From the NCBI GenBank assembly GCA_934140575.1, contig CAKPBJ010000001.1, positions 68,905-132,904 on the forward strand: a stretch of 64,000 bases of DNA. Direction: 5' to 3'. Positions 11,100 through 64,000 of this stretch are shown here, piece after piece. Within the stretch, counting starts at the first letter, position 1. Each line of letters starts with the position of its first letter. Source of the stretch: an uncultured Bacilli bacterium. Lineage in GTDB: Bacteria > Bacillota_I > Bacilli_A > RF39 > UBA660. Position numbers and translations under genes: made by a program. Under the pieces are notes generated by a model. The model had not been told where the DNA came from, did no database searches, and worked only from the letters and a program-made list of their open reading frames with translations.

Positions 11100-11140
11100 T
11101 TTTTAGAAAATAAAAAGTATTACTTAGATAGCAATACTTT
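11100..11140 (-). terminator. rho-independent terminator after hybrid histidine kinase gene
   Basis: AAGTATTACTTAGATAGCAATACTT hairpin then T-run on minus strand. Confidence 0.45.
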
Positions 11141-13199
11141 AAATAATTTCTTCTTTTTCTTCTTCCTTTTTATCTCCAAATACATAGGCTTCAGCATTAG
11201 CGAATCTGTCAACATTTGGGTTATATCTAGGCACATCTTCTACTATTTCTGGCATTATTTCTTTGGTTATATTTTTTTCAATTAGTAAAGATGAATAACT
11301 AATTTTAAAAATTTTATCTAATTTTTCTTTTATTTGTTCTTTTGAAAATGGCTTAGGAATATAATCGATAAATCCTTCGCTTAAATATTTTTCTTTTGAT
11401 CCTGTTAATGCATCTGCAGTTAAGGCAATTACTGGTGTTTTAAAATTATCTATTTTTTGTAATTCTTTTAGTGTTGTTTCTCCGCTCATATTTGGCATCA
11501 TTATATCCATTAATATTAAATCATAATCATTTGATTCTTGAATCTTATCTAAGCATTCTTGTCCACTCATTGATTCAACTATATTTAGATTAAAATCCTT
11601 TAATGCTCTTTTCGCAACTTTTATATTTAAAGCATTATCGTCGACTATCATTACTTTTTTATTAGAATAATTTATATTGCTATTTAGTACAACTGTACTT
11701 TGAGTGTTTTTAGCTGTTTCTTGATGAATTTTTTCATTTCTTATTATTTCTTCTTCTCTAATTTGTTTTGTTAGAGTCTTTATTTTTTGAGGAATTTGTA
11801 CCATAAATATAGATCCTTTTCCAAATTGTGATTCTACATTTATTTTTCCACCCATCATTTCAACTAATGCCTTAGTAATAGCTAGTCCTAAACCAGTACC
11901 TTCTGTTGTTGAATTTTTCTCAATATCTAGTCTTTCAAATTTTGTGAATAATCTATTTATGTGTTCTGCTTTTATTCCTCTACCTGTATCTTGACAAGTT
12001 ATAATTATATTAGAAGTATTTTTTTGTAGATTATTGATACATCTAATATTTAAAGTTATAGTACCCTCATCTGTATATTTTATTGCATTTGTTAGTAAGT
12101 TATTTATGATTTCTTTTACTTTTCCTTTATCTCCAATTAATTCATATGGAATATCATCAGCAATTTTTAGATTAAAGATAACGTTTTTTTCTCCTATTCT
12201 TGTTTGAGTGATTTTACACATATTTGTAATTTCTTTTCTAAATAAATATGGTTTTTCAACTAATTCCATTTTATCTGCTTCTATTTTATTAATATCTAAT
12301 ATATTTCCAACTATTTCTAGAAGAGTGTTTGAGGCATTTACTATATCATTTGAATTTTCTATTACTTCTTTTGGTAAGCTATCTTTGTATGTTAAATTGT
12401 CTTCTGATAGACCTACTATAGCATTTAATGGAGTTCTAATTTCATGGGACATACTAGATAAGAAGTCACTTTTTGCACGATTGGCTCTTTCGGCCTGTTC
12501 TTTAGCAAGTTCTAGTTCTGAAATCATTTTTATATCTGGATTTTCTATGGTGAAATACATAAGATAACATAACAAGCTTAAAATAAGATCATAAATATTA
12601 AATTGTGGGTGAAACATTACAAATAATCCTAGCAAAAGTATTATTGGAATTATAAAAAATATTGCATTAAATCTTTTATCATTTTTCTTAATATTTAAAA
12701 GTGAAATTACAAATGCGACTATTATATTTATAAACGCTAAAGAAAAGGTCAAAGTCACAGCTGAACCTTGTCCACTAGTGATTCCCCCTACTTTATAAAC
12801 TTTAAATTCTAGTAAAAACATTAATACTGTAACTATTAAATAAGATACTATGTTTATCATTCTATTTATTTTTAAGTTTTTTCTATATTTTTCAAAGGAA
12901 ATGTATAAAATATATGATAGTAAGTTTATTGTAATTATTACAATAAATATAGAACCTAGTTTATTAATAAATGAAAATATATTGGCAAACCAAGCAGTTA
13001 TACTTGTAGTTGCATAAATACTTGCTAAATAATGAGATATAAAGTTAGTACTATTTACAAGTAATGTAAATATAAGTATGTTTTTATAATAAACATTTTC
13101 TTCTAAGTCTATTTTTCTTTTTAAAAAAAAGACTAATGATATTAAAAAAGTAAAAATTAAACATACAAAAGGAATTTCATATTCTATCATATTCATCAC
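11139..13199 (-). CDS. hybrid sensor histidine kinase (multi-TM sensor, HisKA, HATPase_c, C-terminal receiver domain), orphan
   Basis: H-box [12 protein letters not shown]-box GTGLGLAI, then receiver [11 protein letters not shown]...[10 protein letters not shown]; no partner RR/HPt gene nearby. Confidence 0.8.
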
Positions 13200-13293
13200 C
13201 TATTATAATATTATCATAATAGACGACATTTTTCGAGGTTTATAAATAAAAAAACTATTTCTGATAGTGAAATAGTCTTTATCTTTTTGTAAA

Positions 13294-14436
13294 TTATTTT
13301 GTTTTTCTTTTTATTAGTTCCTCTCTCATATAGTTTGGAACATTCTTTCTTAGGTCATCATTTCTTTTTACAACATAACTTGTATTATCACTTAATATTT
13401 GTTTTTTAAATATTGGATAATATTTAGAATTTATAATTAGATTACTTATTGTTTCATTTATATTTTCATATGTTTGTTCTTCTTTTGTTTTTTTAGTTAA
13501 ATATTCTGCTCCAAATACATCTTTATCCCATTTAAGTTTTTCAAATGCATCATCAACTTTTTTCTTGCGAATTGTTTCTTCTATGTCATCGTATAATTCA
13601 CGCTTTAATGGTTTAAAGTGTCTTTTACTTAAGAAATATACACCTGTTGCCATCTTATCTCTAATATAACTTGTTATTGATTTTACATAAGCTTTCTCTG
13701 GATTTGGTTCTTTTGGATAGTATTTTGAAGGGTCAATATCTATTTTTTTTACATCAATAGGATTAGAAAAATCCATATATGTTGCATTGTTTTCTTCATC
13801 TCTTATTAGTGAAACAACAACTATTTTTCTTCCGGTTTTTAATGCAAGATTGGTTGGACCATCATATAAGTTATTTATTAACTTGTTAGGGCTTAAATTA
13901 TGAGATCCTTCTGGAAATATTAAAATACTATTAGTTTCTAAGGTCTTTTCCATTTTCTTTGGTAGAAGTATGCGTTCGTCTTTATCCATTATATCGAATG
14001 GGATTACTCCATTTAATAACCATAGTAAAAATATTTCTGGATTTGTTTGTAATGATTCTATTGATCCTAAAACTAATAATGAATTTCTATCAATTACATT
14101 TAGAGCTGTTTCAATATCTTCTGGACACGTATGATTACATACAAAGATATATGGCTCATCCTTTTCTAATTCTGGGTATCTTTCAACTATAATGTTATGT
14201 TTTTTTTCTTTGAAATTATATTCTGATATATCAATATATTCATCTTTTAGTGATTCAAAGTATTCATCATCAGATAAGTTTTTACCTTGATTCATTTGAA
14301 TAATATTTGTATTATCAAACATAGAAAGAATTCTTCTAAAATTCTTATTAAAAAGTTTTCTCAATAGTAAACCTCTTTTTGTTGCAAAATGGTTAACATC
14401 TTTCTTATTTAAATCACTTATTAATGGATTTTTCAT
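13294..14436 (-). CDS. PlsC-like lysophospholipid acyltransferase family protein
   Basis: HxxxxD motif (NHTCPED) and FPEG motif (IFPEGSHN) in correct order. Confidence 0.45.
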   Translation of the reverse strand: MKNPLISDLNKKDVNHFATKRGLLLRKLFNKNFRRILSMFDNTNIIQMNQGKNLSDDEYFESLKDEYIDISEYNFKEKKHNIIVERYPELEKDEPYIFVCNHTCPEDIETALNVIDRNSLLVLGSIESLQTNPEIFLLWLLNGVIPFDIMDKDERILLPKKMEKTLETNSILIFPEGSHNLSPNKLINNLYDGPTNLALKTGRKIVVVSLIRDEENNATYMDFSNPIDVKKIDIDPSKYYPKEPNPEKAYVKSITSYIRDKMATGVYFLSKRHFKPLKRELYDDIEETIRKKKVDDAFEKLKWDKDVFGAEYLTKKTKEEQTYENINETISNLIINSKYYPIFKKQILSDNTSYVVKRNDDLRKNVPNYMREELIKRKTK

Positions 14437-14865
14437 CTATTCCACCTACCCCTTTAATGACTTATATTATATCATATTTTTCTTCATTTTTCAATGTTCC
14501 GCTTACTATTAGCTTCTAAATTATATATATATTTGTTACATTTATGTATCGTGTGTTTTTTAATTCATTTATTACAGGATGTTCAAATATATCTATAAGA
14601 TTAAGTGCTTGCTTATAAATCACTTTTAAATATTGCATTAATATAACTATATTTTACAAACCCTTTTAATTCAAGTGAGGCAACTTCTGCTCCTTCATTT
14701 TCTAGTTTTTTTACTAAAGTATTATTTTCGAATGTATGATATTTAATTAATATTTTACTAACAATTCCAATTCTTGGCTTTATTTTTTCTTATACGTATC
14801 TTTTTAAAGTTAGAAACAATATCTTTTATATTTTGTTTATAAAAAAAATAATACTTTATTTAGTA

Positions 14866-15714
14866 TTATCTCTTTTTATAAACATAGCCTCTTCTATCTT
14901 CAAAGTCATATCTTTCAAATGAAGAATTGAATATTCTTTTTTCTTTTTTTATAGCGTTTTCATCTCTATTATTTAAATTTGAACATATTACAATACCATT
15001 ATTATTAGTTAACTTTTCTAGGTTTTCTTTAGCAACCATTAATTTTTTTCTATTTTCTTGGGCCCATTCTAGGATATTTGAAATATATATATAGTCATAT
15101 GTTTTGTCTAAGTCTACATCTTCAAATAAATTAAAGATATAAAAAGTTGGTTCTTTTTCAACGTATGGGGCAGCTTGTCTTGCTGTTGTAATTAATGAAT
15201 CCCCTTTTGTCTGTCTATCTATATCATAGAATAATTTATCTAATTCAGTTCCTTCTTTTATATGTCTTAAGTAGAATTTTACGGCATTTGCTTCTAATTC
15301 TGTTTCTGGTTTAACTTTTTTTATTAACCTTAGTAAATGGTTATTATTATATATATTAGGGTATAATTCATTATTGTATTTTATTGACCATCTTCTTAAA
15401 TAGTAATAATAAATAGTTAATCTATTCACATCAAATACATCTACTTCTGATGCCTCTAAACTTTTAAGCATTAACATTTGATCTGATGATGATAGTACTG
15501 TTAAAACACTTTTGTCTTGATAATCAAAACTTAATATGTTATCAGCCATTTTTTCGTTTACTTTAAAGTACATTTGTCCATAGTTTCCTTGAATTTCTTT
15601 TGGTAGATTTTTTTCCATACTAATAACTCTACTAGCTAAATAATCTAATTTGTTTATATCAATATCTATTTTTTTCATATATAACCCCTCTTTTGACTGT
15701 ATATAATAATACAA
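14866..15714 (-). CDS. hypothetical protein
   Basis: 282-aa ORF, no confident motif. Confidence 0.3.
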   Translation of the reverse strand: MYYYIQSKEGLYMKKIDIDINKLDYLASRVISMEKNLPKEIQGNYGQMYFKVNEKMADNILSFDYQDKSVLTVLSSSDQMLMLKSLEASEVDVFDVNRLTIYYYYLRRWSIKYNNELYPNIYNNNHLLRLIKKVKPETELEANAVKFYLRHIKEGTELDKLFYDIDRQTKGDSLITTARQAAPYVEKEPTFYIFNLFEDVDLDKTYDYIYISNILEWAQENRKKLMVAKENLEKLTNNNGIVICSNLNNRDENAIKKEKRIFNSSFERYDFEDRRGYVYKKR

Positions 15715-15754
15715 TTTACTAATTTTTTCAAGTTTTTCTTTATTCTATAAGATG

Positions 15755-15786
15755 TTTTCAAAAAAAAAAAGAAGGGGTTCCTTCTT
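15755..15786 (-). terminator. rho-independent terminator after htpG
   Basis: GAAGGGGTTCCTTC hairpin followed on minus strand by T11 run. Confidence 0.6.
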
Positions 15787-17676
15787 TTATTTAGATATTA
15801 CTTCACAAATTAATCTACTGATTTCTGTTGGATTATCAATTGGAAGTCCAGCAATCATTCTTGCTTCACTATATAATATTTTTGTATATTTTTTGAATTC
15901 TTCTTTATCATTTGCATATAAGTCTTTTAATTTTTCTGCAATTGGATGTTTTTCATTAATTTCAAGAATTGTTTGAGCTTTGATTCCCATATCATTTGGC
16001 ATTGCATCAAATACTTTTTGCATTTCTATTGAAACATCACCTTTTGTTGTTAAACATACTGGGTGTGATTTTAATTTATTACTGAATTTTACTTCATTTA
16101 CTTCTTTTATTTCATCACACATTTCTTTAAGCAAGTCTTTCATATCTTCATTTACTTTTTTAGTTTGTTCTTTTTCTTCTTCTGTTTCTAAGTCTAATGA
16201 GCCATCACTTACATTAACAAATTTTTTATCTTCATAATTTTGAATTGCGGTGATACAGAACTCATCAACATAATCAGTTAAGTATAAAATATCATAGTCT
16301 TTGTCTTTTACTTGTTCTACTTGTGGAAGAGCATTAATTTTATCAATAGATGCTCCTGATGCGTAATAAATACTGTCTTGATTTTCTTTCATTTCATCTA
16401 CATATTCTTTTAAAGTTATTAGTCTTTCATGTTTTGATGAATAGAACATTACTAAATCTTTTAATTTATCTTTATCTTGTCCATAGTTATTGTAAACTCC
16501 ATATTTTAATTGAACACCAAATGTTTTAAAGAATGATATATATGTTTCTCTATCATCTTTAAGCATTGTTTCTAATTCTCTTCTGATTTTACTTTCTATG
16601 TTTTTAGCGATTATTTTCATGCTTTGAGATTCTTGTAGCATTTCACGAGAAATATTTAGTGATAAGTCTTCTGAATCAACAACTCCTTTTACAAAGCTGA
16701 AATAATCTGGTAAAAGATCAGCACATTTTTCCATGATAAGTACTCCATTTGAATATAGAGAAAGTCCTTTTTCATAATCTTGTGTGTAATAGTCATATGG
16801 AGCATGTGATGGAATAAATAATAATGCTTTGAATGATGCCATTCCTTCTACAGATGTAGATATTACTTTTAGTGGTTTATCATAATCACTAAATTTATCC
16901 ATATAGAAATTTTCATAGTCAGCATCTGTTACTTCACTTTTATTTTTCTTCCAAATAGGAACCATACTATTTAATGTTTCTATTTCTTTATGATCTTCAT
17001 ATTTATGCTTTTCTTCATCTTTTAATTCATGATGAGTACATTCCATTTTAATCGGGAAACTTATATAATCAGAATATTTTCTAACTAAGTTTTTCAATTC
17101 ATATTCATCTAAATATTTTGAATAGTTAGTTTCATCATCGTCTTCTTTTAGATGAAGTTTAATTTCTGTTCCTCTTTCTTTTTTCTTACATTCTTTTATT
17201 TCGTAGCCATCTGCTCCTGTACTTTCCCAAGAATAAGCTTTATCTGAATCAATACTTAAACTTTTAACAGTGATTTTATCACTTACCATAAATGCAGAAT
17301 AGAAACCTACTCCAAATTGACCAATAATATCAATTTTTTCATCTTTTGTCATATTCTCTTTAAAAGATAATGAACCACTTTTTGCGATTGTTCCTAGATT
17401 AGACTCAAGTTCTTCTTTTGTCATACCACAACCATTATCTTTTATTGTTAATGTTCTTTTATCCTTATTGTATTCAAGGTTGATTTCTAAATCTTCTTTA
17501 TTTACTTTAACATCTTTATCAGTTAAACTTCTATAATAAAGTTTATCTAGAGCATCACTTGCATTACTAATCAACTCTCTTAAAAATATATCTTTATTTG
17601 TATAAATAGAATTAATCATTAAATCTAATAGTCTTTTAGATTCTGATTTAAACTCTTTCATAGCCATATTTTTCAT
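15787..17676 (-). CDS. htpG: molecular chaperone HtpG (Hsp90)
   Basis: [12 protein letters not shown] ATPase motif, 629 aa, full Hsp90 architecture. Confidence 0.9.
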
Positions 17677-17714
17677 CTCCTTAACAATTGTATATCTAAT
17701 TTATAGCACCATTT

Positions 17715-17741
17715 TTAGCACTTGTCAATTATAAGTGCTAA
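17715..17741 (-). promoter_or_regulatory. CIRCE-like inverted repeat (HrcA operator) overlapping a TTGACA-N17-TATAAA promoter upstream of htpG
   Basis: TTAGCACTT-N9-AAGTGCTAA matches CIRCE consensus TTAGCACTC-N9-GAGTGCTAA; located ~40 nt upstream of htpG start. Confidence 0.5.
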
Positions 17742-17777
17742 GAAAATAAAAAGAAAAAGTAAATATAAAAATTTACT

Positions 17778-18815
17778 TTAACTATAAATATAATTTATTA
17801 TTTCATTTCTTTTATCATTTTCATATTTATTATCTAAATATTTATAAATTAGATTTTTTTCTTTTTCTCTACACTGAGTAATTTTTATAAGTTTATTTTC
17901 TAATTGTTGTAGAGTTATGTCTTTTTCAAGTAATTTATTTAATACAATAAACTTTTTATTTTCTAAATCTACATTGTAAAAATAAATTAATAATTTGTTA
18001 TCTTGACTTTTATCTAATTGAAGAGTTAATTTATTAAATTCTTTCTTTAGATTTTCTCTAATAGCTTTTATTATGATTAATACTTCAGCACCTATTGGAC
18101 TACTTTTCTCACTATAGATACTTATTTTATTTAGGCTTTCTATATTTTCTATAATATATTTCTTGTTTTTTATTACTGCACAGAACTTATTACCTACTTG
18201 TTCTATGAAGTCTATGTCGTTAAATGTATAGGTGTTGTTGTTTAGTGTTTCTTGATTGAACATTTTATTATAGTCATCTTTAAATAGATTAAAGTCTATT
18301 GTTGCATTATATTTTGGTAATTCGAATGGTGTATTAAATTGTTCTAGTAATTTATTACATAATTCACTAATTATATGTGGAGTATGTTCAAATAATATTA
18401 CTATTATTTCAAATAGAAATTCAAATTCATAATCTATATAATTACTAAAGTTAAATAAATAGTCTTTATTTGAAACATGGGTTGTTAGTTCTATGTAGTA
18501 AGAATCATTTGTTTTAATGGCTTTTTCTCGCATGTGTTTTTCTTTATATAGATCTTCATTTTCATTAATTAATTCCATAATATAATTTACTGTTTTTACA
18601 AAGATAAATTGGTAACAGAAATATTCTTCTACTTTGTCACCTATTCTTATTGCATCTATTGGGACATATAGTACTTTAAATTTTTCTATTTTTTCATTAT
18701 ATACTAAAGCAATATATATATTTGCTCCATCATAGTCTTTTAAATATAAGTCTACTACTACTGATTCTTTTTGTTTTTTTAATGCATTATAAATTTTATT
18801 TTTGATATCTATCAT
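17778..18815 (-). CDS. hypothetical protein
   Basis: 345-aa ORF, Asn/Lys-rich, no recognisable domain. Confidence 0.3.
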   Translation of the reverse strand: MIDIKNKIYNALKKQKESVVVDLYLKDYDGANIYIALVYNEKIEKFKVLYVPIDAIRIGDKVEEYFCYQFIFVKTVNYIMELINENEDLYKEKHMREKAIKTNDSYYIELTTHVSNKDYLFNFSNYIDYEFEFLFEIIVILFEHTPHIISELCNKLLEQFNTPFELPKYNATIDFNLFKDDYNKMFNQETLNNNTYTFNDIDFIEQVGNKFCAVIKNKKYIIENIESLNKISIYSEKSSPIGAEVLIIIKAIRENLKKEFNKLTLQLDKSQDNKLLIYFYNVDLENKKFIVLNKLLEKDITLQQLENKLIKITQCREKEKNLIYKYLDNKYENDKRNEIINYIYS

Positions 18816-18896
18816 TCTTCCACCCTCTTTAATATTATTATCATCTAAATAATAATTATGCTTATTTTTAAAAAAAATAACCCAATCATTCAGTGA

Positions 18897-19895
18897 CTAG
18901 ATTACTTTTTCTTTTTCAACTGCTGTTGTTACGACAGATGATAAAGCAACTGCGTTATTTTTTACATCTTCTTTTTTATCAGCATTATCATTGTTCTTAA
19001 AATCATTACAAATAATTAGTCCATTTTCACCAGTAAATAAATTAATTTTTCCTTCACGAAAAGCCAAATATATCTTATTCCAAATTACACTTTCTACATA
19101 TCTTGCTTTTTTTGGATGCATTAAATATCTTACAGTTAATTCTATATGGTCTTGGACAATTCTTGTATAAATTATTGGATCATATTTGTTATAGTATATT
19201 CTATTTTCTGTATTTATCTCACTTATTTGACTTTTCATTTTTCTTGGGATACTTTTAATAGTTTCTATATTATTAACTATTTTATACATTTCCTTTTTAT
19301 TTTCTACTAAATCACTATCTAGAGATATGTTTACTACTAATTCATCCCAAATATATTTAAATCCTTTGTTTATATTTTTTACAGGTTTTGATATAACTAT
19401 TGAGTTTGGAAAGCTTACTACTATTCCAGTTGACTGTCCATTGTCTTCTTTTGTTGATACTTCTAATACTTCAAAGTCAAGTGCTGAGATATTCATGACA
19501 TCTCCTTTTATATCGTCTATTTGAATTCTGTCTTCTACTTTAAATGGTCTTCTTACTTTTATATATAATCCACAGAAGAAATTTAGAATAATTTCACGAA
19601 GAGCATAAATTAAGGCAGCTGATAATACTGAAATTAATGTCATGATATTTTTTAGATATTCGCTCCATACTAATAATAGTAAAAACAGTTCTATAATGTT
19701 CATGAATATCTTAAATGATTGGTTTAGAACGTATTCTCCTCTTCCACTTAATTTGTCTTTTATAAAACTTCTACCTACTGTTTTTAATATTGAAAATATA
19801 CAAATAATTAGTAATGTTAAAGATACTACTTTAATTATACCTACATCAATAGTAGTAATTTTACTTAAATACTTACAAAAAGCATCGAACATCAT
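18897..19895 (-). CDS. MscS-family small-conductance mechanosensitive channel
   Basis: TM helices followed by GLYIKVRRPFKVEDRIQIDDIKGDV beta-domain signature. Confidence 0.7.
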   Translation of the reverse strand: MMFDAFCKYLSKITTIDVGIIKVVSLTLLIICIFSILKTVGRSFIKDKLSGRGEYVLNQSFKIFMNIIELFLLLLVWSEYLKNIMTLISVLSAALIYALREIILNFFCGLYIKVRRPFKVEDRIQIDDIKGDVMNISALDFEVLEVSTKEDNGQSTGIVVSFPNSIVISKPVKNINKGFKYIWDELVVNISLDSDLVENKKEMYKIVNNIETIKSIPRKMKSQISEINTENRIYYNKYDPIIYTRIVQDHIELTVRYLMHPKKARYVESVIWNKIYLAFREGKINLFTGENGLIICNDFKNNDNADKKEDVKNNAVALSSVVTTAVEKEKVI

Positions 19896-19980
19896 ATCAC
19901 CTCAAGAACTATTATTCTAACATAACTATACTATACTTTATATAAAATAATCAATCAAATTATTAACTTTACGGAATTTT

Positions 19981-20020
19981 ACAAATAAATAAAGAATAGA
20001 CATCTATTTTGTCTATTCTT
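19981..20020 (-). terminator. rho-independent terminator after aspS
   Basis: AGAATAGACATCTATTTTGTCTATTCT hairpin with T-runs both sides. Confidence 0.55.
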
Positions 20021-20024
20021 TTTC

Positions 20025-21770
20025 TTATCTTATTTTTATATGTGTTTCTCTAAGTTGTAGTTCTGTTACGTTTCCTGGGGCATTCATTAAGAGGTCTGCT
20101 CCTCCTGCTGTCATTGGGAAAGCTATTGTTTCACGAATTGATTCTTCATCTAGTAAAAGCATTAGCATTCTATCAATTCCAGGGGCCATTCCTGCATGTG
20201 GAGGTGCACCATATTTGAATGCTTCGTATAAAGCTTTAAATCTATTTTCCAAGTCTTCTTCACTATACCCTGCAATACTGAAAGCTTTTCTCATTATATC
20301 TAAATCATGGTTTCTTACTGCTCCGCTTGCCATTTCAATGCCATTACATACAAAGTCAAATTGGTATGCTAAAACATCTTCTGGTTTTTTGTTATTTAGG
20401 GCATCCATTCCACCTTGTGGCATACTGAATGGATTATGAGTAAATATGTATTGATCATCTTCTTCACTCCATTCAAACATTGGAAAATCTTTTACTATGC
20501 AGAATTTAAATTCATCTTTATCAATTAAATCTAGTCTACGTCCTAATTCATTTCTTATTTCACCTGCGTATTTATAAGCATTATTTCTATCAGCTATAAA
20601 AAATATTACACAGTTAGGTTTAAGATTTGCTACTTTTATTAAATCTTCTCTTTCATCTTCACTTAAGAATTTATCGATTGGTCCGACAAAAGACATATCT
20701 TCATTTACTTTAAAGTATCCAATACCTGCACTCATTCCGATACTTTTTGCATACTCACCTAAATCATTAAACCAAGAGTTTGACTTATCTGCGATGTCTT
20801 CTACAACAATTCCTTTTACTGTAACTCCTCTAAATGGACGGAATGTTGTTTCTTCAAATACATCTGTTAAATCTACTAATTCAAGTGGGTTTCTTAAATC
20901 TGGTTTATCTGTACCAAATCTTTCCATTGACTCTTTATAACTTAATCTTATAAATGGTTTTTCACTTACTTTTTTACCTTTTCCAAATTCTTTAAATGTT
21001 TCATAGAATATTTTTTCTCCCATTGCTAGGACTTCTTCTTCACCTACAAAACTCATTTCATAATCTAATTGATAGAATTCTCCATATACTCTATCACTTC
21101 TTGCATCTTCATCTCTAAAGCATGGTGCTATTTGAAAGTATTTATCGAAGCCACTACACATTAATAATTGTTTAAATTGTTGTGGGGCTTGTGGCAAGGC
21201 ATAGAACTTTCCATGAAATTTACGGCTTGGTACTATAAAGTCTCTTGCTCCTTCTGGAGATGAGGCTGTTAATATTGGTGTTTGTAATTCTAGGAAGTCT
21301 TGTTCTTTCATTATTTTTCTTAAGAAGTCGATTACTTTACTTCTAAAAATTATGTTTTCTTTTACTTTTGGATTTCTTAAATCTAAGTATCTGTATTTTA
21401 ATCTTACATCTTCTGATACTTCTTTTGATGTCATAACTTCGAATGGTAAAACATTATTTGCTTTTCCTAATACTTCTAAATCACTTACAAGTAATTCTAT
21501 TGTACCTGTTGATATTCTTTCATTATAATCTTCTTCTGCTCTTTTTCTTATTATACCTTGAATAGTTATACTTGATTCTCTTGTTATTCCATCAAATATA
21601 GAATCATCATTTGATACTACTTGAATTACTCCAGTGTTATCACGAATATCTACAAAGATAACACCTCCATGATCTCTTATATTTTCAACGAATCCTGCAA
21701 CTCTTACTTCACTATCTATATCACTTTCACTTAGTTTACCACAGTAATGTGTTCTATATCTTTTATCCAT
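20025..21770 (-). CDS. aspS: aspartyl-tRNA synthetase (likely non-discriminating, given gatCAB operon and Asn-type T-box)
   Basis: 581 aa class II aaRS; N-terminal OB fold MDKRYRTHYCG, motif 2 FRDEDARSDR. Confidence 0.9.
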   Translation of the reverse strand: MDKRYRTHYCGKLSESDIDSEVRVAGFVENIRDHGGVIFVDIRDNTGVIQVVSNDDSIFDGITRESSITIQGIIRKRAEEDYNERISTGTIELLVSDLEVLGKANNVLPFEVMTSKEVSEDVRLKYRYLDLRNPKVKENIIFRSKVIDFLRKIMKEQDFLELQTPILTASSPEGARDFIVPSRKFHGKFYALPQAPQQFKQLLMCSGFDKYFQIAPCFRDEDARSDRVYGEFYQLDYEMSFVGEEEVLAMGEKIFYETFKEFGKGKKVSEKPFIRLSYKESMERFGTDKPDLRNPLELVDLTDVFEETTFRPFRGVTVKGIVVEDIADKSNSWFNDLGEYAKSIGMSAGIGYFKVNEDMSFVGPIDKFLSEDEREDLIKVANLKPNCVIFFIADRNNAYKYAGEIRNELGRRLDLIDKDEFKFCIVKDFPMFEWSEEDDQYIFTHNPFSMPQGGMDALNNKKPEDVLAYQFDFVCNGIEMASGAVRNHDLDIMRKAFSIAGYSEEDLENRFKALYEAFKYGAPPHAGMAPGIDRMLMLLLDEESIRETIAFPMTAGGADLLMNAPGNVTELQLRETHIKIR

Positions 21771-23200
21771 TACTTACATCTCCTTTCTAATTCTTCTGTT
21801 ATTAATTCGCGTGATTTATTTGGGTTTGCTTGTCTATTACTTTTTTTCATTACTTGTCCTACAAAGAAGTTTATTGCGGATTTGTTTCCTTCTTCTACGT
21901 ATTGTCTTACTACTTCTTTGTTTTCTTCCATACATTCATTAATTAAACTTAAAAGTTTATCTGAATCATTTATTTGGACTAAGCTTTCTTTCTTTATTAA
22001 TTCATTTGGATCTATTTTTTCATCTATTGCTTTATAAAGTAATTTTTTAGCGGCATCTAAACTCATTTTTCCTTCATTTACATAGTTTATTACTCCACTT
22101 AACATTTTAGGGGTAATAAATAATTCATTTATCTTTATTTCTAATTTATTTAGTGTACTTAAAATTGCGGTTGTGGTGAAGTTAACTGTTAGAGCTACAT
22201 CACTACCATAACTTATTACTTCTTCAAAGTAATCAGATAGACTTCTTTCTTTTGAAAGGATTGCTGCATCATATTCACTTATTCCTAATTTTTCAATATA
22301 TTTAAAATATCTATCTAATTTTAATTCTGGTAATTCGCTTTTTAATTCATATAATAAGTCATCTGTTACTGGAGTACTTGGAATATTTGGTTCAATAAAA
22401 TATTTGTAGTCTACTGCATCTACTTTTGCTCTCATTGAATAAGTTTTTCCATCTTCTGCGATACGACGAGTTTCTTGAATTACTTTTTCACCTTTATTTA
22501 GTATTTCACTTTGTCTTTTTATTTCATATTCAATTGCGGCTCTTACATTATTAAATGCATTTATATTTTTCATTTCTACTTTTGTACCTAGTTCTGTATC
22601 TGTTTCTTTCATAAGAGAGATATTAACGTCACATCTCATTTGACCATAGTTACTTTTTGCTTCACTTACTCCAAGATATAAGAATACATCTCTTAAGTCT
22701 TCTAGGAATGTTACGGCTTCATCAGCACTTTCCATACAAGGTTCTGTTACTATTTCCATTAATGGTATACCACTTCTATTGTAGTCAATTAGAGAGTACT
22801 TTGGATAATGTTCTAAAGATGCTGTATCTTCTTCTAGATGTAAATCATGAATATCTACTCTTTTTACATGATTATTTACTAAGATATCTAAGTATCCATT
22901 TATTCCCATCGGTTTTGTATTTTGTGTTATTTGATAACCTTTTGGTAGGTCTGGATAGTAATAGTTTTTTCTGTCAAATATTACTTCATCTGGTGTTTTA
23001 CAATGTAGTGCCATTGCAGTTAATAGAGCACGACGGGCTGCTTCTTTGTTGGCAACTGGTAATATTCCAGGTAATCCTAAGTCAACTGTTCCGACATTTA
23101 TATTGTGGGATTCAGTAAACATATTAGGAGCTGGTGAAAAGTTTTTTGATTTTGTTTCTAGTTCACAATGAACTTCAAGTCCGATTACTACTTTATACAT
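21770..23200 (-). CDS. gatB: Asp-tRNA(Asn)/Glu-tRNA(Gln) amidotransferase subunit B
   Basis: MYKVVIGLEVHCEL... canonical GatB N-terminus, 476 aa. Confidence 0.9.
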   Translation of the reverse strand: MYKVVIGLEVHCELETKSKNFSPAPNMFTESHNINVGTVDLGLPGILPVANKEAARRALLTAMALHCKTPDEVIFDRKNYYYPDLPKGYQITQNTKPMGINGYLDILVNNHVKRVDIHDLHLEEDTASLEHYPKYSLIDYNRSGIPLMEIVTEPCMESADEAVTFLEDLRDVFLYLGVSEAKSNYGQMRCDVNISLMKETDTELGTKVEMKNINAFNNVRAAIEYEIKRQSEILNKGEKVIQETRRIAEDGKTYSMRAKVDAVDYKYFIEPNIPSTPVTDDLLYELKSELPELKLDRYFKYIEKLGISEYDAAILSKERSLSDYFEEVISYGSDVALTVNFTTTAILSTLNKLEIKINELFITPKMLSGVINYVNEGKMSLDAAKKLLYKAIDEKIDPNELIKKESLVQINDSDKLLSLINECMEENKEVVRQYVEEGNKSAINFFVGQVMKKSNRQANPNKSRELITEELERRCK

Positions 23201-24662
23201 CTATATCACCTACTTTACTATAAATATCTCTTAGTCCTGTTACTTTTTCTACATAGTTTGCCATGTTTAGTACTACATCATCTTCTTTTACTCTTCCTGT
23301 GATATTAAGTCCTACTGGCATATCATTAATCATTGTATATGGAAGTGTAATTGATGGAAATCCACCAAAGTTTCCTATTGCTAGATGGTTTTCTAGAATT
23401 AAATATCTATCACTTAGTTGTTCACTACTACTATCAAAGCTTTGAGCTGGTCCTCCACTACATGGAGCAATCATTCCGTCATATTCTTTAAAGAACTCAT
23501 TCATTTTATCTACTATCATATGTCTTACTCTTTGGGCATTTAAGAATAATTTTTCTTGATTTTCTTTTTGTAAAATATAACTTCCTAAGATGAAACGTCT
23601 TTTTATTAATTCAGAGAAACCTTTTGTTCTTGCATCAAACATTATTTCTTCTACACTTTGTCCTTCTCCACGAGGTCCAAATTGGATTCCTGTTAGGTTT
23701 GAGTTGTTTGATGTTGCTTCGGCACAACTTATACACATATATGTTGGATATATTGCTTCTAATAATTTTTTATCCATTGATACTTCTTCAATAATGAAGC
23801 CTTGGCTTCTTAACTTATCTAGTGTTTCATGAAAGCTTTCTAGTGTTTTTGTTAATGTTTCATCTGAGGTATCTTTGTATGTGTCAAGTCCACATATTTC
23901 TTTTATATAGAATAATTTTTTACCTTTAATATCATTATCTATTAAATCTGCATATGTTTTTTTATCATCATTTAATGTTACCATATCATTTATGTCTTTA
24001 CCTTTTAAGACATCTGTTATTATTGCGGCATCTCGAACGTTTCTTGAAAACATTGCGACATGGTCTAGACTTGATGCGAAAGCAAATAATCCATATCTTG
24101 AAATTCTTCCATATGTTGGTTTAAATCCAACTAGCCCTCCATGTGATGCTGGTTTTCTAACGCTATCACCTGTATCACTTCCGATTGAGAATGGTACTAT
24201 TCCTAAAGCTACGCTCGATGCACTTCCGGCAGATGATCCTCCAATCATGCAATCTTTGTTCCATGGGTTTCTTACAATTCCTGTGTGTCCTGTTGTTCCT
24301 GTTCCACCCATTGCAAGTTCATCTAGTACTGTCTTACCTACTAGCACGGCACCGGCTTTTTTTAATTTCTTATAAACTGTTGCGTCATATACGGGAATAT
24401 AATCTTTTAATATGTTAGATGAGGCTGTTGTTAAGATTCCACTTGTTGAAAAGTTATCTTTTAGAGCATATGGAATTCCATTTAATAGACTATTTCTATC
24501 CTTATATTTAAATTTATCTATGATTGTTACAAATGAATTGTAATCTTGTTGGAAATAGTGAGCTAATCTATTAGCACTATTAAATAATTCTTCTGGGGTT
24601 ACTTCACCTTTATCTAACATACTTCTAAGTTCTTCTATACTTTTTCCTCTATACATCTTCAT
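23193..24662 (-). CDS. gatA: Asp-tRNA(Asn)/Glu-tRNA(Gln) amidotransferase subunit A
   Basis: amidase signature GGSSAGSASSVA; start probably at internal Met (MKMYRGKSIEEL) overlapping gatC end. Confidence 0.9.
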   Translation of the reverse strand: MKMYRGKSIEELRSMLDKGEVTPEELFNSANRLAHYFQQDYNSFVTIIDKFKYKDRNSLLNGIPYALKDNFSTSGILTTASSNILKDYIPVYDATVYKKLKKAGAVLVGKTVLDELAMGGTGTTGHTGIVRNPWNKDCMIGGSSAGSASSVALGIVPFSIGSDTGDSVRKPASHGGLVGFKPTYGRISRYGLFAFASSLDHVAMFSRNVRDAAIITDVLKGKDINDMVTLNDDKKTYADLIDNDIKGKKLFYIKEICGLDTYKDTSDETLTKTLESFHETLDKLRSQGFIIEEVSMDKKLLEAIYPTYMCISCAEATSNNSNLTGIQFGPRGEGQSVEEIMFDARTKGFSELIKRRFILGSYILQKENQEKLFLNAQRVRHMIVDKMNEFFKEYDGMIAPCSGGPAQSFDSSSEQLSDRYLILENHLAIGNFGGFPSITLPYTMINDMPVGLNITGRVKEDDVVLNMANYVEKVTGLRDIYSKVGDIDV

Positions 24663-52133: not shown

Positions 52134-53969
52134 TTATCTGTATTTCCATCCTTTAGGTATATATGATAAATGTTTTAAATCTGAGTTTATACAAATCACA
52201 TCACTGACATTGCCTGCTTTATCTTCCATTGTCATACATTCTTGTGTTCTACTTAAACCTTGTAAGTATGAGAAAGTACAATTATCTAGATTAAGATTCC
52301 CATAGCGTTGTGAATATGGGCCACGATAATTACCAGTAGTATTTTTATCTGTTGTACATGTTTTTTCCTTTGAACTAAGATTACATCCAGATTTACTATC
52401 AAAACATTCAAGAACAAAATAGTAGAAAATTCTTCCTGTTGTTTGGAAAGCAGTATCACAATTTGCAGGACCGTTTGCTGTATTTATTCCACTACAATTT
52501 CTTCCTGTCATTAAAACAATGTCATTTTTGTGTTTATTATACATACTTTCATATGGTGATCCTTTATAATATTGGTATCCCATTGCAGTATATTTATCAT
52601 ATAATTGGAATACTGTACTAAAATCTCTAATACCAATTATTGGTTTTGTTCTATCAATGTTTATTATTGCATTAGATTTATTACACATTTTAAAGTTTCC
52701 TGCATTATCTTGGATTTTTATATTTACATTTGCTGTTCTAGCTTCTTCTGTGAATGTTTTTGTAAATATACCTTTTGCACATCCACTAGTAGAATCTTGA
52801 CAGTTAACGCCTATTGTTCTAGTTTGATTTGTCCAATCATTTGCAGAACCTTCTCCTACCCAATTTCCACATGTAGGTGCTGTCTTATCAATTCTAATCA
52901 TTGTTCTATTACTTGCTGAACATACATTTCCATTTACACAAAGTCTAATATATACATATTGATTTCTTTCTTTTGAAAAATCATTTGTTTCAAATTTAGT
53001 TTTATTAGAATTTTTATAAGCTACCCATGATGTTTCAGGATTTGTTCCGATTTCTGTTGCATTTGCATTGTATGTGTATTGATAACTATCAACATTTTTT
53101 GTATCATCACTAGGTGTTAATGTTAAGTTAAATGCATTATTAGTCCACATTTCTTTTGATGGATTTTCAATGTTTGGAGCTGCTGGAGGATTAATAATAG
53201 CTTCTTTTGTATTAATAATTACTGTTTGGAAGTTACTATAGTCTGAACATTTTGATTCACTTTCACAAACTCTCCATGCAATTTTTACTGTTCCATCTTC
53301 TTTAATATTTAAATACTCTGTTTTTTCATTTTGTTTTGTGATTTTTCCATCTACTTTTAATTTATATTCATAATGATCTACATTTGTTGTTGTAGATGTT
53401 GCGGATGGAATTGAAATTACTGGTACTTTACTTTCTTGACCAGATACATAATTTTTTAATGTTTTTGAGGTTTCTATAGTTGGCTCTGTTATTTTATCAT
53501 TCCAGCTATATAATTTTACAAGAGGTGGATTTAATTCATTATCATCAAATTCACAACTACTTATTTTTGTTTGTGTTCCTTCTGGAAATGAATATTCCAT
53601 TTTATAGTTATGGCAACATAGTCTAACTTTATAACTGTTTTCATTAAGTGTAGACCCATCACCTTCTTCATGAATTATTTTTACATTTCCATCACAAGTT
53701 TTTCCTCTTTTTCCTGGATCTTCTGTTTGTTTAAGATAATTTTCTTTTACAAGTTCGCTTATTTCTAATTGAGATACCGCTCCATTATCCATCATGTATT
53801 CTTCAACAGAACTTGTAACACTCTTAGCCATTGTATCATAAGATTGATGTTTTGCTTTTGTACTATATCTACCATAAGCCATAATAGCTAAACATATCAA
53901 TATGCCAAGAATTAAAATTACTCCTAATAATTCAACCAAAGAAAATCCCTTTTCATTTTTTCTTTTCAT
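52134..53969 (-). CDS. large (611 aa) type IV pilin/pseudopilin-like protein with Cys-rich C-terminal domain
   Basis: class III signal: MKRKNEKG|FSLVELLGVILILGIL with Glu at +5; long extracellular domain with >25 Cys. Confidence 0.6.
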   Translation of the reverse strand: MKRKNEKGFSLVELLGVILILGILICLAIMAYGRYSTKAKHQSYDTMAKSVTSSVEEYMMDNGAVSQLEISELVKENYLKQTEDPGKRGKTCDGNVKIIHEEGDGSTLNENSYKVRLCCHNYKMEYSFPEGTQTKISSCEFDDNELNPPLVKLYSWNDKITEPTIETSKTLKNYVSGQESKVPVISIPSATSTTTNVDHYEYKLKVDGKITKQNEKTEYLNIKEDGTVKIAWRVCESESKCSDYSNFQTVIINTKEAIINPPAAPNIENPSKEMWTNNAFNLTLTPSDDTKNVDSYQYTYNANATEIGTNPETSWVAYKNSNKTKFETNDFSKERNQYVYIRLCVNGNVCSASNRTMIRIDKTAPTCGNWVGEGSANDWTNQTRTIGVNCQDSTSGCAKGIFTKTFTEEARTANVNIKIQDNAGNFKMCNKSNAIINIDRTKPIIGIRDFSTVFQLYDKYTAMGYQYYKGSPYESMYNKHKNDIVLMTGRNCSGINTANGPANCDTAFQTTGRIFYYFVLECFDSKSGCNLSSKEKTCTTDKNTTGNYRGPYSQRYGNLNLDNCTFSYLQGLSRTQECMTMEDKAGNVSDVICINSDLKHLSYIPKGWKYR

Positions 53970-61282: not shown

Positions 61283-61500
61283 CCTCCTTTCTAAAAACTA
61301 AAAAACTATTCATCCAAAGGACGAATAGTTCGTGGTACCACCTTAATTTATACTTAAAGTATCTTAATATTTATAACGGAATTATCCGGAATTATTTACT
61401 TTGTTTCAATAATTATGTTCCTCTGCTACCTTCAATATCCTTGTTTATTCATTTACACCTACCATGAACTCTCTAGAAAACAGTAAATATTTACTCCTCA
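61283..61500 (-). promoter_or_regulatory. T-box riboswitch leader (probable Val specifier GUA) with terminator, upstream of HAD-hyp-valS operon
   Basis: minus-strand AAATTAAGGTGGTACCACGAAC T-box sequence; terminator AACTATTCGTCC..GGATGAATAGTTTTTT; AGAGAG and GAAGGTAGC in stem I region. Confidence 0.65.
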
Positions 61501-61529
61501 GATTCATCACATCTGGTTTTGATTATATA

Positions 61530-61814
61530 TCATTTTTTGGGATTTATCAATATTTTTTGATTTTTTATGTTGTCCAGATAGTTTTTTTCTTCATTATCCA
61601 TGTATCCTTTAAATATAATCTTATTTATTTCTGAATGATTGAATACACAAATTGTATCTGATCTTAATATTCCTTCTGGATACATACAACCACAGTAATC
61701 AAATACATGATTTGGATAATCATTAGTACTTACTAAGTAACCAGTTACCATTAATTTCTTTTTACCACCATTTAGAAGTACTATACTACCTAAGGGTAAT
61801 AATTCTTTATTCAT
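61530..61814 (-). CDS. DUF4176-family protein (paralog 1)
   Basis: LPLGSIVLLNGGKKKLMVTGY...DYCGCMYPEG pattern; start at internal Met 4 nt after preceding stop. Confidence 0.55.
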   Translation of the reverse strand: MNKELLPLGSIVLLNGGKKKLMVTGYLVSTNDYPNHVFDYCGCMYPEGILRSDTICVFNHSEINKIIFKGYMDNEEKNYLDNIKNQKILINPKK

Positions 61815-63054
61815 CGTCATCACCTCTATAGAAAAAATCATCTTCTTCATTGTAGAATTTATTTATACTATTTTTATCTCGTGATGCATGATATGGAGTA
61901 TTATCTTCTATTTCTTTTAAATTTTGTTGATTAATTGTAGAGTTTTTTGATGCGAATGATTCATTTTGATTAATACTATTTGATGTATCATATGTTCCTT
62001 CTAGTTGTAGTTCTTCTTCACTATTTCTATCATCATAATACATTTTTCTTTTTCTATTATCTTTGTATTTTTTATCATCAATAATTACTGCACCTAGAGC
62101 ACCTGTTATTCCTGCGGCTGCTATTCCTAAGCCAATTGGTACTGTATTATATGAACTAGATGTTGTTTCTGTGGGTTGTTGTGCTACTGGAGGTACTGTT
62201 GTACTACTCATGCTTTGAGTCAGACTTTTGCTTAAATTAGTATCATATTTATTTTCGATTGCGCTTAATCTATCTGAAATTGAATTTATAGCATTTTGTC
62301 CAGTATTATTTTCTTTTACAGCATTTAATTCTTCACGTAGAGACGCTACAGTATTTGCATCTTCCCTACTCATATCATATCTTGCCATATATCTATCAGA
62401 TAAATTTTGTCCATTTTCAGTGTTAGATGAAGCAAATGATGATACTTTTGAACCAGTTTGTTCTTGTCTCCATACTGACATATCTCTTGATACTAAGTCT
62501 TCTTTTTCTGAAGTACTTAAATTTAAATTATCATATTTTTTTAAGAGTGAATTTTTCCACTCATCTGATGATGAATAATTAGTTGGATATTCATTTGCAG
62601 TATTTGTAACCATATAGTCTTTTATTGAATCATCAAGATTATTATTAAAGTCATTAATATTATTAGAAATATTAATAGTATTATTTTTAGATAATAATGA
62701 ATTTATCTTACTACTAGAAGTAGTGTCTTTATAGATTGTTGATAAATCTTTTATATCATTAGATGTGACTTCTTCAACATTAGAAAATCTTTCTAATGTA
62801 CTATTAAGGGCATCTTTTAGATTAGTTATTTGTTTTTTTGTACTTTCTAATTTCTCATATAGTTTATTAATAGAATCTTTGTAGGAAGTTATACAATTAC
62901 CATGTTCTAAATTAGTTGTGGTAATTAGATTTTCTATATCTTCAAAGTAAGTTGTTAAGTCAGTATTATTAATGCAATTTTCGACTGATGTTAGAGTATC
63001 AAGTGAAGTTGATATTCTTTCTAAGTCGATGCAACCAGTATATCCTTGTGCCAT
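61807..63054 (-). CDS. hypothetical protein: ~300-aa helical Ser/Thr/Asn-rich N-region, single TM (VPIGLGIAAAGITGALGAVII), acidic C-terminal tail
   Basis: 415-aa ORF translationally coupled between 143-aa gene and DUF4176 paralog 1. Confidence 0.35.
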   Translation of the reverse strand: MAQGYTGCIDLERISTSLDTLTSVENCINNTDLTTYFEDIENLITTTNLEHGNCITSYKDSINKLYEKLESTKKQITNLKDALNSTLERFSNVEEVTSNDIKDLSTIYKDTTSSSKINSLLSKNNTINISNNINDFNNNLDDSIKDYMVTNTANEYPTNYSSSDEWKNSLLKKYDNLNLSTSEKEDLVSRDMSVWRQEQTGSKVSSFASSNTENGQNLSDRYMARYDMSREDANTVASLREELNAVKENNTGQNAINSISDRLSAIENKYDTNLSKSLTQSMSSTTVPPVAQQPTETTSSSYNTVPIGLGIAAAGITGALGAVIIDDKKYKDNRKRKMYYDDRNSEEELQLEGTYDTSNSINQNESFASKNSTINQQNLKEIEDNTPYHASRDKNSINKFYNEEDDFFYRGDDDE

Positions 63055-63063
63055 ATTGATCTC

Positions 63064-63495
63064 CTATAATGTCTTAGCAAGTTCTAATCTTGCTTCTAGA
63101 CTTTTTATTCTTCTATTTGTTGTTTCTTTTGATAATTTTTTTTCTTCTGCAATTTTATCTTCTATTGCAGTAATTAACTGATTCTTTTCAATTTTCTTTT
63201 GTTCAGATGATGAGTTTTCTACTTGTAGTTTTATATTTTCAAGGGTACTTTTTATTTCATCTATATTATTTAATATATTTATTGCCATTTCATTAGCAGG
63301 AGTTGCTCCCATAATATTTATTGATGATTTATCAAGTCCTCCATTAATTGTTTCATATTTTATATTTTCATATATTACTGGATTCATATATGAATTAAAA
63401 TCTGTATATATATCATTTATTTTATCAGTTAATTTATCAGGATTAATGATTTCTTTTGAATCAGTTTTCCAAGTTATCCAATCTACTTTAGACAT
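63064..63495 (-). CDS. hypothetical alpha-helical/coiled-coil protein (143 aa)
   Basis: predicted helical, coiled-coil C-terminus; 9-nt gap to downstream gene. Confidence 0.35.
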   Translation of the reverse strand: MSKVDWITWKTDSKEIINPDKLTDKINDIYTDFNSYMNPVIYENIKYETINGGLDKSSINIMGATPANEMAINILNNIDEIKSTLENIKLQVENSSSEQKKIEKNQLITAIEDKIAEEKKLSKETTNRRIKSLEARLELAKTL

Positions 63496-63568
63496 ATTAA
63501 CACCTTACCTTTATTCTATATTAATTATAGGAAAATATGAGTGTTAAGTCAAATAAAAAAAAGAAAGC

Positions 63569-63928
63569 TTAAGCTTGCGCTTCGCTTTCTTTTTCTTTAT
63601 TAATTTCGGTTACTTCTTTTTTTATTTCATCAATTGATAGTTTTAACATATGATTAAAGCCATCATGTTCAGCCGTCTTGTATCCTTGATAACAAATTTT
63701 TTCAATTTGGTCATGATTAAAGCCAATTATTTGATCTTGCCTTATTATACCTTCAGGGTATGTACAGGCACAATAGTCATACATTTTCCCTGTTGAATCA
63801 ATCTTTTTTCCATTTTCATATAACTCACCTGTTGGAAAGATACAATATCCTGTAATCATTAACTCTTTTTTTCCACCTTTTAATAAAACTACTGTTCCAA
63901 TTGGTAAAAATTTTTCTTCTTTTTCCAT
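63569..63928 (-). CDS. DUF4176-family protein (paralog 2)
   Basis: FLPIGTVVLLKGGKKELMITGY...YDYCACTYPEG; GGGAGGAG RBS. Confidence 0.55.
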   Translation of the reverse strand: MEKEEKFLPIGTVVLLKGGKKELMITGYCIFPTGELYENGKKIDSTGKMYDYCACTYPEGIIRQDQIIGFNHDQIEKICYQGYKTAEHDGFNHMLKLSIDEIKKEVTEINKEKESEAQA

Positions 63929-63944
63929 TTTTACTCCTCCCTAT

Positions 63945-64000
63945 TTATTGTAAGTCAGCGAGTTCTTCGCTAGATCTTGCATCATATTTTTCTTCATTAT
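63945..64000 (-). CDS. C-terminal end of a gene entering from beyond the right edge
   Basis: open minus-strand frame ...NEEKYDARSSEELADLQ* ending just upstream of DUF4176 paralog 2. Confidence 0.3.
   Translation of the reverse strand, partial: NEEKYDARSSEELADLQ

Follow-up and report, generated by a model that had tools for sequence, protein, structure and literature searches.

The 64,000-nucleotide stretch analysed here (the window) comes from a lineage of uncultured, spore-forming gut Bacilli with 25% G+C. The genes of interest all lie on its minus strand, where they follow one another in 5' to 3' order: the end of a gene that we call g4, then g5, g6, g7, g8, and a T-box leader. We read g6, g7, and g8 as a conserved substrate cassette of a type VIIb secretion system (T7SSb), consisting of a targeting partner, an exported and membrane-anchored protein, and a chaperone of the DUF4176 family, and we give this reading a probability of roughly 55%. 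Behind it we rank, in this order, a component of the secretion machine, a toxin, and an unrelated envelope protein. The region as a whole is best explained as part of a divergent T7SSb locus in which two distinct cassettes, each consisting of cargo followed by a small DUF4176 gene, have their ends. The first lies mostly beyond the window and comprises two WXG100-like genes, g3, a strain-variable anchored g4, and g5; the second comprises g6, g7, and g8.

The g6-g7 pair and its DUF4176 protein

The gene g6 (63064..63495, minus strand) encodes a soluble helical protein of 143 amino acids (aa), and g7 (61807..63054, minus strand) encodes a 415-aa protein with one transmembrane (TM) helix. An earlier reading made from the letters alone (the sequence-only reading) had described the two products as a helical protein and a protein with a helical N-terminal region, one TM helix, and an acidic tail, and both open reading frames were confirmed. 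It had also called these two genes translationally coupled, which does not fit the 9-nucleotide (nt) gap between them; among g6, g7, and g8, the only overlap is at g7/g8, where the g8 start overlaps the g7 stop by 8 nt. g8 (61530..61814, minus strand) encodes the DUF4176 protein of the cassette, DUF4176-B. Its start is most likely the ATG at 61814 (MNKELLPLG, giving 94 aa) rather than the one at 61850 (106 aa), because GAGGTGA, a good Shine-Dalgarno sequence, lies upstream of it and the same start is called in public assemblies.

The g7 protein is composed of an N-domain, a middle domain, a TM helix, and a tail. The N-domain (aa 1-125; 62680..63054, minus strand) appears as a helical hairpin in alignments and in the structure model (predicted local distance difference test [pLDDT] 70-88), with the conserved motifs xCIDxE[KR]L and, at the turn, N[FL]EHGNC; we propose that it is an export or trafficking domain. 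The middle domain (aa ~128-283; 62206..62673, minus strand) is likewise helical, carries a WRQEQTGS motif, and is an insertion of ~160 aa found in long forms of the protein only. The TM helix, VPIGLGIAAAGITGALGAVIID (aa 305-326; 62077..62142, minus strand), is almost invariant across the family (family form NTVPIGLGIAAAGI), has a Kyte-Doolittle value of 2.1, and shows a glycine-zipper-like small-xxx-small pattern, G310xxxA314xxxG318xxxA322. The 15 residues before it contain no lysine or arginine and the 15 after it contain seven, and by the positive-inside rule the tail is predicted to be cytoplasmic. That tail (aa 327-415; 61810..62076, minus strand) opens with a basic KKYKDNRKRK and continues into an acidic region, with 23 D/E versus 14 K/R overall and a conserved motif PYHASR..KFY[DN]EE. 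The core form of the family thus consists of the ~125-aa hairpin domain, a short S/T/P linker, the near-invariant helix, the basic cluster, and the PYHASR..KFY tail. AlphaFold2 places helices over aa 11-279 of g7. For g6, its model (pLDDT 70) has helices at 19-36, 39-51, 66-120, and 124-142, and the alignment shows an invariant N-terminal VDWITWKT..EIINP motif and a GGLD loop. As a side observation, the g7 N-domain has conserved C8, C27, and C54 and an invariant His51 (window 63054-62893), which could mean metal binding or a cytoplasmic location; cysteines are uncommon in exported Firmicute proteins.

Neither protein could be connected to a described family. With 50 hits from a word-indexed search of 5.8 billion proteins and 117 from a full hidden Markov model search of 1.84 billion representatives, the g7 family is small. 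For g6 there are 156 homologues, and no member of either set has a name or a Pfam domain. Against Pfam and NCBIfam, g6 has no family match, and neither g6 nor g7 matches the WXG100 or toxin profiles, with only sub-threshold coiled-coil noise in these scans. For the LXG domain (PF04740), g7 gave no match at E up to 1 and 15 family members gave none at E up to 5. An hhalign comparison of the g7 N-domain with the WXG100-like g1 family of the same locus returned a probability of 2.5%, that is, no relation. When the alignments of g7 and g6 were used as profiles against PDB sequences, no related protein emerged, and for g7 no T7SS protein. Fold searches with the two models returned helical hairpins of a generic kind, a broad set that also included EsxA and PE/PPE. 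These scans agree with the sequence-only reading that the central proteins match no known LXG domain or toxin.

Throughout the lineage, g6 and g7 travel together. They are adjacent, single-copy, and just upstream of valS in 26 of 26 GTDB species-representative loci, g6 always immediately upstream of g7, and this synteny with valS holds even in loci that lack g1-g5 and have an essC cluster beyond ftsW (L030, L033, and L058). The hosts are all uncultured gut metagenome-assembled genomes (MAGs), human and ruminant, labelled Bacilli, Mollicutes, or Erysipelotrichaceae. Between strains in which g3-g5 are only 18-63% identical, g7 is 98-100% identical.

The presence of g8 follows one particular part of g7. 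It is found in 12 of 12 species loci with a long g7 (372-432 aa) and is absent from 20 of 20 with a short g7 (213-307 aa); the short forms keep the helix and have no DUF4176 gene. The middle domain also recurs in P0254, a 630-aa distant relative from locus L057, whose gene is directly followed by a DUF4176 gene. Because of this co-occurrence and this adjacency, we assign g8 to the middle domain and not to the helix, and we propose from these gene patterns that g8 is the cognate chaperone of g7 and that the middle domain is where DUF4176-B would bind. The Ltc/Lcp chaperones offer a parallel, their binding site on LXG toxins being the middle region. In the short-form loci, g7 is followed by a gene for an HD-motif protein, by the 5'-nucleotidase-family gene NT5C, or, in L033, by a gene for a 2300-aa protein. 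The last of these (L033 11263-18165, from a rumen MAG) stands directly after the short g7 and has no recognised domains in our scans.

DUF4176 proteins have been described as toxin-specific cytoplasmic chaperones that bind the middle or C-terminal region of their toxin and are not secreted, and in Streptococcus suis they are encoded downstream of a one-to-one cognate effector (PMC12478183, PMC12482557). They fall into a small (70-130 aa) and a large (200-250 aa) class, and for the small ones, the proposed binding partners are hydrophobic helices in toxins that act on membranes (PMC12478183). Both DUF4176 proteins of the window, g8 with 94 aa and g5 (DUF4176-A; 63569..63928, minus strand) with 119 aa, are in the small class. 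They match Pfam PF13780 with 90.6 bits (E 6.7e-26) and 81.3 bits (E 5.5e-23), respectively, against a cut-off of 25 bits, and are 41% identical to each other (BLASTP E 2e-27). The sequence-only reading had named them DUF4176 paralogs and suggested a Pfam search, which has now borne it out. Each adjoins its partner and tracks it one-to-one, g5 with g4 and g8 with the long g7.

How might a protein without a signal peptide reach the cell surface? Relatives of the pair offer a suggestion. In the distant relative L057, the gene order is cotZ, a WXG100 gene, genes for 90-aa and 203-aa proteins and for the 630-aa relative, a DUF4176 gene, and genes for 163-aa, 312-aa, and 177-aa proteins. A g6 profile matches the 163-aa and 177-aa proteins (E 7e-8 and 1e-6), and a g7 N-domain profile matches the 312-aa protein (E 2e-8), which also carries an NlpC/P60 peptidoglycan hydrolase domain (29.4 bits, cut-off 23). 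In a marginal g7 homologue (E 7.6e-4), the N-domain is followed by a CW_7 peptidoglycan-binding repeat. We found no signal peptide in the NlpC/P60 and CW_7 proteins. Distant relatives have Pro/Ser/Thr/Asn-rich stalks of 200-300 aa before the helix. Export is likely because the N-domain is reused with NlpC/P60 and CW_7, which act outside the cell, because there is no signal peptide, and because of the stalks and the charge bias around the helix. The simplest reading of these sequences is that the N-domain and a g6-type partner may form a reusable export module and that g7 would be exported N-terminus first and anchored by its C-terminal helix.

In the mechanism that we propose, the N-terminal hairpin of g7 would pair with g6 to give an elongated helical signal recognised by EssC, the role that LXG and Lap proteins play elsewhere. 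DUF4176-B would bind and stabilise the helical middle insertion in the cytoplasm and stay behind, while the N-terminal ~300 aa of g7, which have no signal peptide, would be exported. The Gly/Ala-zipper helix would then act as the membrane anchor, with the basic cluster and the acidic PYHASR..KFY tail remaining cytoplasmic.

This proposal borrows from the LXG, Lap, and DUF4176 (Ltc/Lcp) systems, of which S. intermedius TelA/TelB, S. suis LXG1-CT3, and S. gallolyticus TelE are examples. The order is the same: a small helical partner, a protein with an N-terminal helical domain and a middle region, and a cognate DUF4176 protein. As in S. suis, the DUF4176 gene is downstream, and it tracks the middle domain; the N-domain is reused on different C-termini; and the setting includes EssC, WXG100, and YukD-like genes. 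However, the g7 N-domain has no LXG profile match, and g7 is invariant and has neither a toxin domain nor an immunity gene. Furthermore, there is one partner gene instead of two, with no match to a Lap family (DUF3130, DUF3958, DUF5082, or DUF5344), and g7 ends in a TM anchor and a long conserved charged tail. We propose, by analogy, that g6 is a targeting partner of the g7 N-domain, Lap-like in role, and we treat the relation of g7 to LXG proteins as a functional analogy drawn from gene grammar; family membership is not supported. The LDXD domain of EsaD (Zhang et al. 2011/2012) offers another comparison, as both it and the g7 N-domain are helical N-domains from Firmicute T7SS contexts and neither is WXG or LXG. 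The g7 protein has an [IV]DxE motif near its N-terminus, and the likeness to EsaD LDXD extends to this short motif only.

It is tempting to see a toxin in g7, since its Gly/Ala small-xxx-small helix near the C-terminus and the adjacent small DUF4176 gene are shared with the glycine-zipper toxins TelE, EsxX, TspA, and TelD. On this account, g7 would be secreted and, in the manner of TelE, EsxX, or TspA, would depolarise membranes or form pores in them, with the zipper helix entering the membranes of competitors and DUF4176-B shielding that helix in the producer. TelE and EsxX indeed kill via C-terminal glycine zippers (PMC10434224, PMC12744356), small DUF4176 proteins have been proposed to bind the membrane-inserting helices of such toxins (PMC12478183), and the DUF4176 protein LcpE stabilises the middle and C-terminal regions of TelE (bioRxiv 10.64898/2026.03.12.711312). 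In contrast to these toxins, no DUF443/DUF5085 or other membrane-protein immunity gene stands beside g7: g8 comes next and then directly the T-box leader, with no gene between them. The short g7 forms, which keep the helix and have no DUF4176 gene, indicate that it is the middle insertion, rather than the helix, that g8 accompanies. The helix is also followed by a strong basic stop-transfer cluster and a conserved tail of ~90 aa, and g7 barely varies within a species and is conserved across the lineage. We regard a g7 toxin as unlikely. The sequence-only reading had put forward a candidate effector- or adaptor-type module with cargo that may be novel. A polymorphic toxin cargo is not supported for g7, which is species-invariant, accompanies g6 in 26 of 26 loci, and has no immunity gene. 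If g7 is a T7SS substrate, a housekeeping surface or structural role is more likely than that of an arms-race toxin, because g7 is invariant within species and occurs in every related species found, without an immunity gene.

EssC and the island next to g8

An exact-sequence look-up with g5 returned 23 contigs from human gut metagenomes. Downstream of g8, these show two arrangements, with the T-box leader following on ~12 contigs, as in the window, and EssC following on ~5. In the siblings that share an identical g5, the 1528-aa protein encoded directly after g8 is EssC (TIGR03928, 932 bits, cut-off 778). Next in order are a YukD-like 97-aa gene, helical genes of 221, 75, 187, and 102 aa, and genes for large toxins, one of which carries an ADP-ribosyltransferase domain. 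Sibling L053 shows the whole island of ~14.4 kb (9222-23620), which ends with two more DUF4176 genes and is then followed by the T-box leader; it is also seen in L002 (12385-20360), and of the contigs with an identical g5 about a third carry it. Together with the WXG100-like genes that lie beyond position 64000, the EssC and YukD-like genes after g8 in these siblings uphold the T7SSb setting that had been suggested from the sequence of the window. The toxins of the L053 island include a single 908-aa gene and a split version with 501-aa and 412-aa genes in the same domain order (16882-19618 versus 20179-22905); their Gly-rich hydrophobic N-terminal region is g4-like, and they have no Pfam match.

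In the window, the junction of island presence and absence falls at 61552..61576 (no strand assigned), within the last codons of g8. Identity to the essC-carrying siblings stops at ~61576, and at 61552 homology begins again, now to the far side of the island, from which we conclude that the window strain does not have the essC island at g8. We considered whether the island had been lost through recombination of g8 with the island's terminal DUF4176 gene; we rejected this, as homology on the right resumes ~45 bp past the stop of that gene and the tail of g8 is not derived from it. The right edge of the island abuts a promoter-like site of the T-box/valS unit (61550..61522). Look-ups with the NT5C and 148-aa proteins encoded in the window, downstream of the T-box leader, returned only window-type contigs. 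Looking beyond this site for an EssC of the window strain, we saw the nearest cluster (93% identical) at one position only, directly after g8, and the next (~61-65%) on contigs with other arrangements. On one contig with essC after a sortase gene, L055, a single flanking gene is matched by a homologue in the window, and synteny is absent.

More broadly, T7SS blocks occur at at least three insertion points around a conserved region with prsW, a glycosyltransferase gene, ftsW, cotZ, and onward to valS, and at a separate locus in other species, which is hot-spot behaviour. The essC sites that we saw are between the glycosyltransferase gene and ftsW (L030, L033, and L058), after g8 (L002 and L053), and after a sortase gene (L055 and L056), with a further one in L059.

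A second possibility is that g6 and g7 belong to the T7SSb machine itself, in a structural or accessory role. The g7 helix would then pack on the TM helices of EssC, and its tail or head would dock substrates, replacing EssB, EssA, or EsaA. Like EssB/YukC, EssA, and EsaA/YueB, g7 is a single-pass membrane protein; it is lineage-universal, and in the siblings its gene lies immediately upstream of essC. No protein matching YukC/EssB or EsaA came to light near essC, whether in the full L053 locus or next to the other essC genes, and EssA was not recognised near essC either. The single-copy pair in every species locus, the near-invariant TM helix, the conserved tail motif, and the invariance of g7 within species beside hypervariable cargo would all suit a machine part. 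In addition, g4 and g7 are the only proteins there in which we noticed a hydrophobic helix, the formal scan having covered g4-g8 only. In contrast, g7 has no Pfam YukC match and no detectable homology to these components, and its model is all-helical. It also has a dedicated DUF4176 protein, from a family known only as effector chaperones (PMC12478183). The fusion of N-domain and g6-like tandem pairs to varied C-termini, such as NlpC/P60 in L057, is substrate grammar, and many strains keep g6-g8 without an adjacent essC, while locus L059 has g1-g5 and essC without g6-g7 nearby. We consider a machine part improbable, though the most serious competitor to an exported substrate.

Could the pair have nothing to do with secretion? 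In that case, g6 and g7 would be an envelope or sporulation pair, with g7 tail-anchored and its coiled-coil head in the cytoplasm, that happens to sit beside an island hot spot and in one clade captured DUF4176 and the middle insertion. The pair is found at a fixed position just upstream of valS in every species, its neighbours include cotZ, ftsW/spoVE, gerE, gerM, and spoIIIAH, and T7SS blocks sit at three different places around it while the pair is kept in strains without essC. The three conserved cysteines of the N-domain also fit a cytoplasmic head. Such a bystander would not explain the 8-nt overlap and perfect co-occurrence of g7 and g8, or the combination of the N-domain with NlpC/P60 or (marginally) CW_7, which are necessarily extracellular, in proteins without a signal peptide. 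The wall-active relatives lie inside WXG100/DUF4176 clusters, and the charge distribution favours an N-out orientation of g7. We think this the least probable of the readings considered here, and a quite unlikely one.

The degree of confidence in g6-g8 as a substrate cassette is nevertheless tempered by several observations. The window strain has no essC at either of the insertion sites used by its close relatives (after g8, and between the glycosyltransferase gene and ftsW), and there is no EssC anywhere in the 64-kb window. In this strain, without the adjacent island, the cassette might be served by an EssC elsewhere in the genome or might currently be orphaned. The g6-g7 pair is anchored to valS, and in L030, L033, and L058 ftsW and cotZ separate it from all T7SS genes; in L059, the g1-g5 block and essC lack g6-g7 across the 10 kb covered to each side of essC. 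The valS anchoring and L059 mean that part of the T7SS linkage could be synteny beside an island hot spot. As for the structure model of g7, its overall quality is poor (pLDDT 54.7), with moderate confidence in the helical parts only. Finally, to our knowledge, export with retention by a C-terminal helix is not an established mode of T7SSb.

The upstream cassette and the second DUF4176 gene

Only the 3' end of g4 falls within the window (63945..64000, minus strand; the last 17 codons and the stop), and the rest of the gene lies beyond it. The reverse complement of 63945..64000 ends in NEEKYDARSSEELADLQ and the stop codon and is identical to the end of L001 7516-9984. Every g5 contig that reaches far enough upstream carries g1, g2 (~95 aa, helical), an acidic helical g3, and g4 (~820 aa), with g5 always directly after g4. 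The g1 protein matches the WXG100 profile TIGR03930 weakly (E 0.0017), and its orthologue in L057 passes the Pfam WXG100 cut-off (29.6 versus 27.3 bits). The C-terminus of g4 (822 aa) has a Pro/Ser/Thr-rich stalk, a Gly/Ala-rich TM helix, and an acidic tail. BLASTP found no detectable homology between g7 and g4 or between g6 and g3, so the C-terminal architecture shared by g4 and g7 is a resemblance only.

The sequence-only reading had the two DUF4176 genes bracketing a single module, with g5 and g8 on either side of g6 and g7. Comparison of strains of one species does not support this. In these strains, cotZ, g6, g7, g8, the 148-aa protein, and valS are 96-100% identical, while g3 is 18-24%, g4 30-43% (749-1072 aa), and g5 51-63% identical. 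Within g4, the last ~200 aa are near-unchanged, and the N-terminal ~500-850 aa vary. With g5 at 51-63% where g6-g8 are 96-100% identical, g5 co-varies with the variable part of g4, and from this pattern its chaperone partner is probably g4 rather than g6 or g7. With its constant anchor and variable head, g4 turns the usual polymorphic toxin layout around (examples are L046, L047, L048, and L052, e.g., L046 3786-7153). The g4-g5 unit is also tandemly duplicated in L015, L017, L021, L023, and L036, together with g1-g2 in L015, as in effector arrays.

The interval between g5 and g6 points the same way. An intrinsic-terminator-like hairpin with a U8 tract (63555..63597, minus strand) overlaps the g5 stop codon; its predicted RNA fold is -19.9 kcal/mol (z -3.82), with 1 of 200 shuffles as good, and a simple terminator scan made no call at this hairpin. 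A sigma-70-type promoter match, TTGACT-17 nt-TATAAT (11/12; 63524..63552, minus strand), lies 29 nt upstream of the g6 start; it is a match to the consensus only, and the number of such sites in the region is not above the shuffled expectation. With the U8 hairpin and the promoter match between them, g5 and g6 are probably not in one operon. The earlier statement that the operon runs past the window edge thus holds insofar as same-strand genes continue past 64000, but these probably belong to a different transcription unit from g6. Altogether, the co-variation of g4 and g5, the tandem g4-g5 duplications, and the terminator and promoter candidates place the two DUF4176 genes in different cassettes, in agreement with the published effector-specific role of DUF4176 proteins and with their position after a single cognate effector in S. 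suis (PMC12482557, PMC12478183).

What would the two cassettes mean for T7SSb? The arrangement of an effector with a DUF4176 protein is known, and what is new here is the unclassified N-terminal domain with its partner. We tentatively suggest, at lower confidence than the cassette reading itself, that g6 and the g7 N-domain are a previously unrecognised T7SSb trafficking pair, distinct from LXG/Lap. They would serve T7SS-dependent surface display, in which conserved (g7) or hypervariable (g4) heads, lacking a signal peptide, would be held at the membrane of the producer through a common C-terminal Gly/Ala-zipper anchor with a cytoplasmic tail, each head being kept soluble before export by its own small DUF4176 protein. 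If true, the LXG/Lap repertoire of secretion-targeting modules would gain a new member, from a gut lineage without cultured members. Anchored proteins that have extracellular-type domains and no signal peptide also hint that tethered surface proteins may be among what T7SSb delivers. On what small DUF4176 proteins do, a 2025 PNAS study could only speculate, and the window and its relatives provide two natural cognate pairs. The occurrence of DUF4176 only with the middle insertion is a clean comparative signal that points to the binding region. Strains with and without essC whose cassettes are otherwise identical also provide a ready-made natural comparison.

Neighbouring genes

The T-box leader downstream of g8 (61314..61516, minus strand) matches Rfam RF00230 with 133 bits and heads a unit of NT5C, the gene for the 148-aa protein, and valS. 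The NT5C gene thus lies downstream of the leader in one unit with valS, and with the leader ahead of all three genes, NT5C is presumably under tRNA-Val control. Farther along the window, a gene for a 611-aa product (52134-53969, minus strand) lies downstream of a small ABC-transporter-like gene cluster, and the annotation of matching public contigs gives its product a weak Pfam match to N_methyl (prepilin-type).

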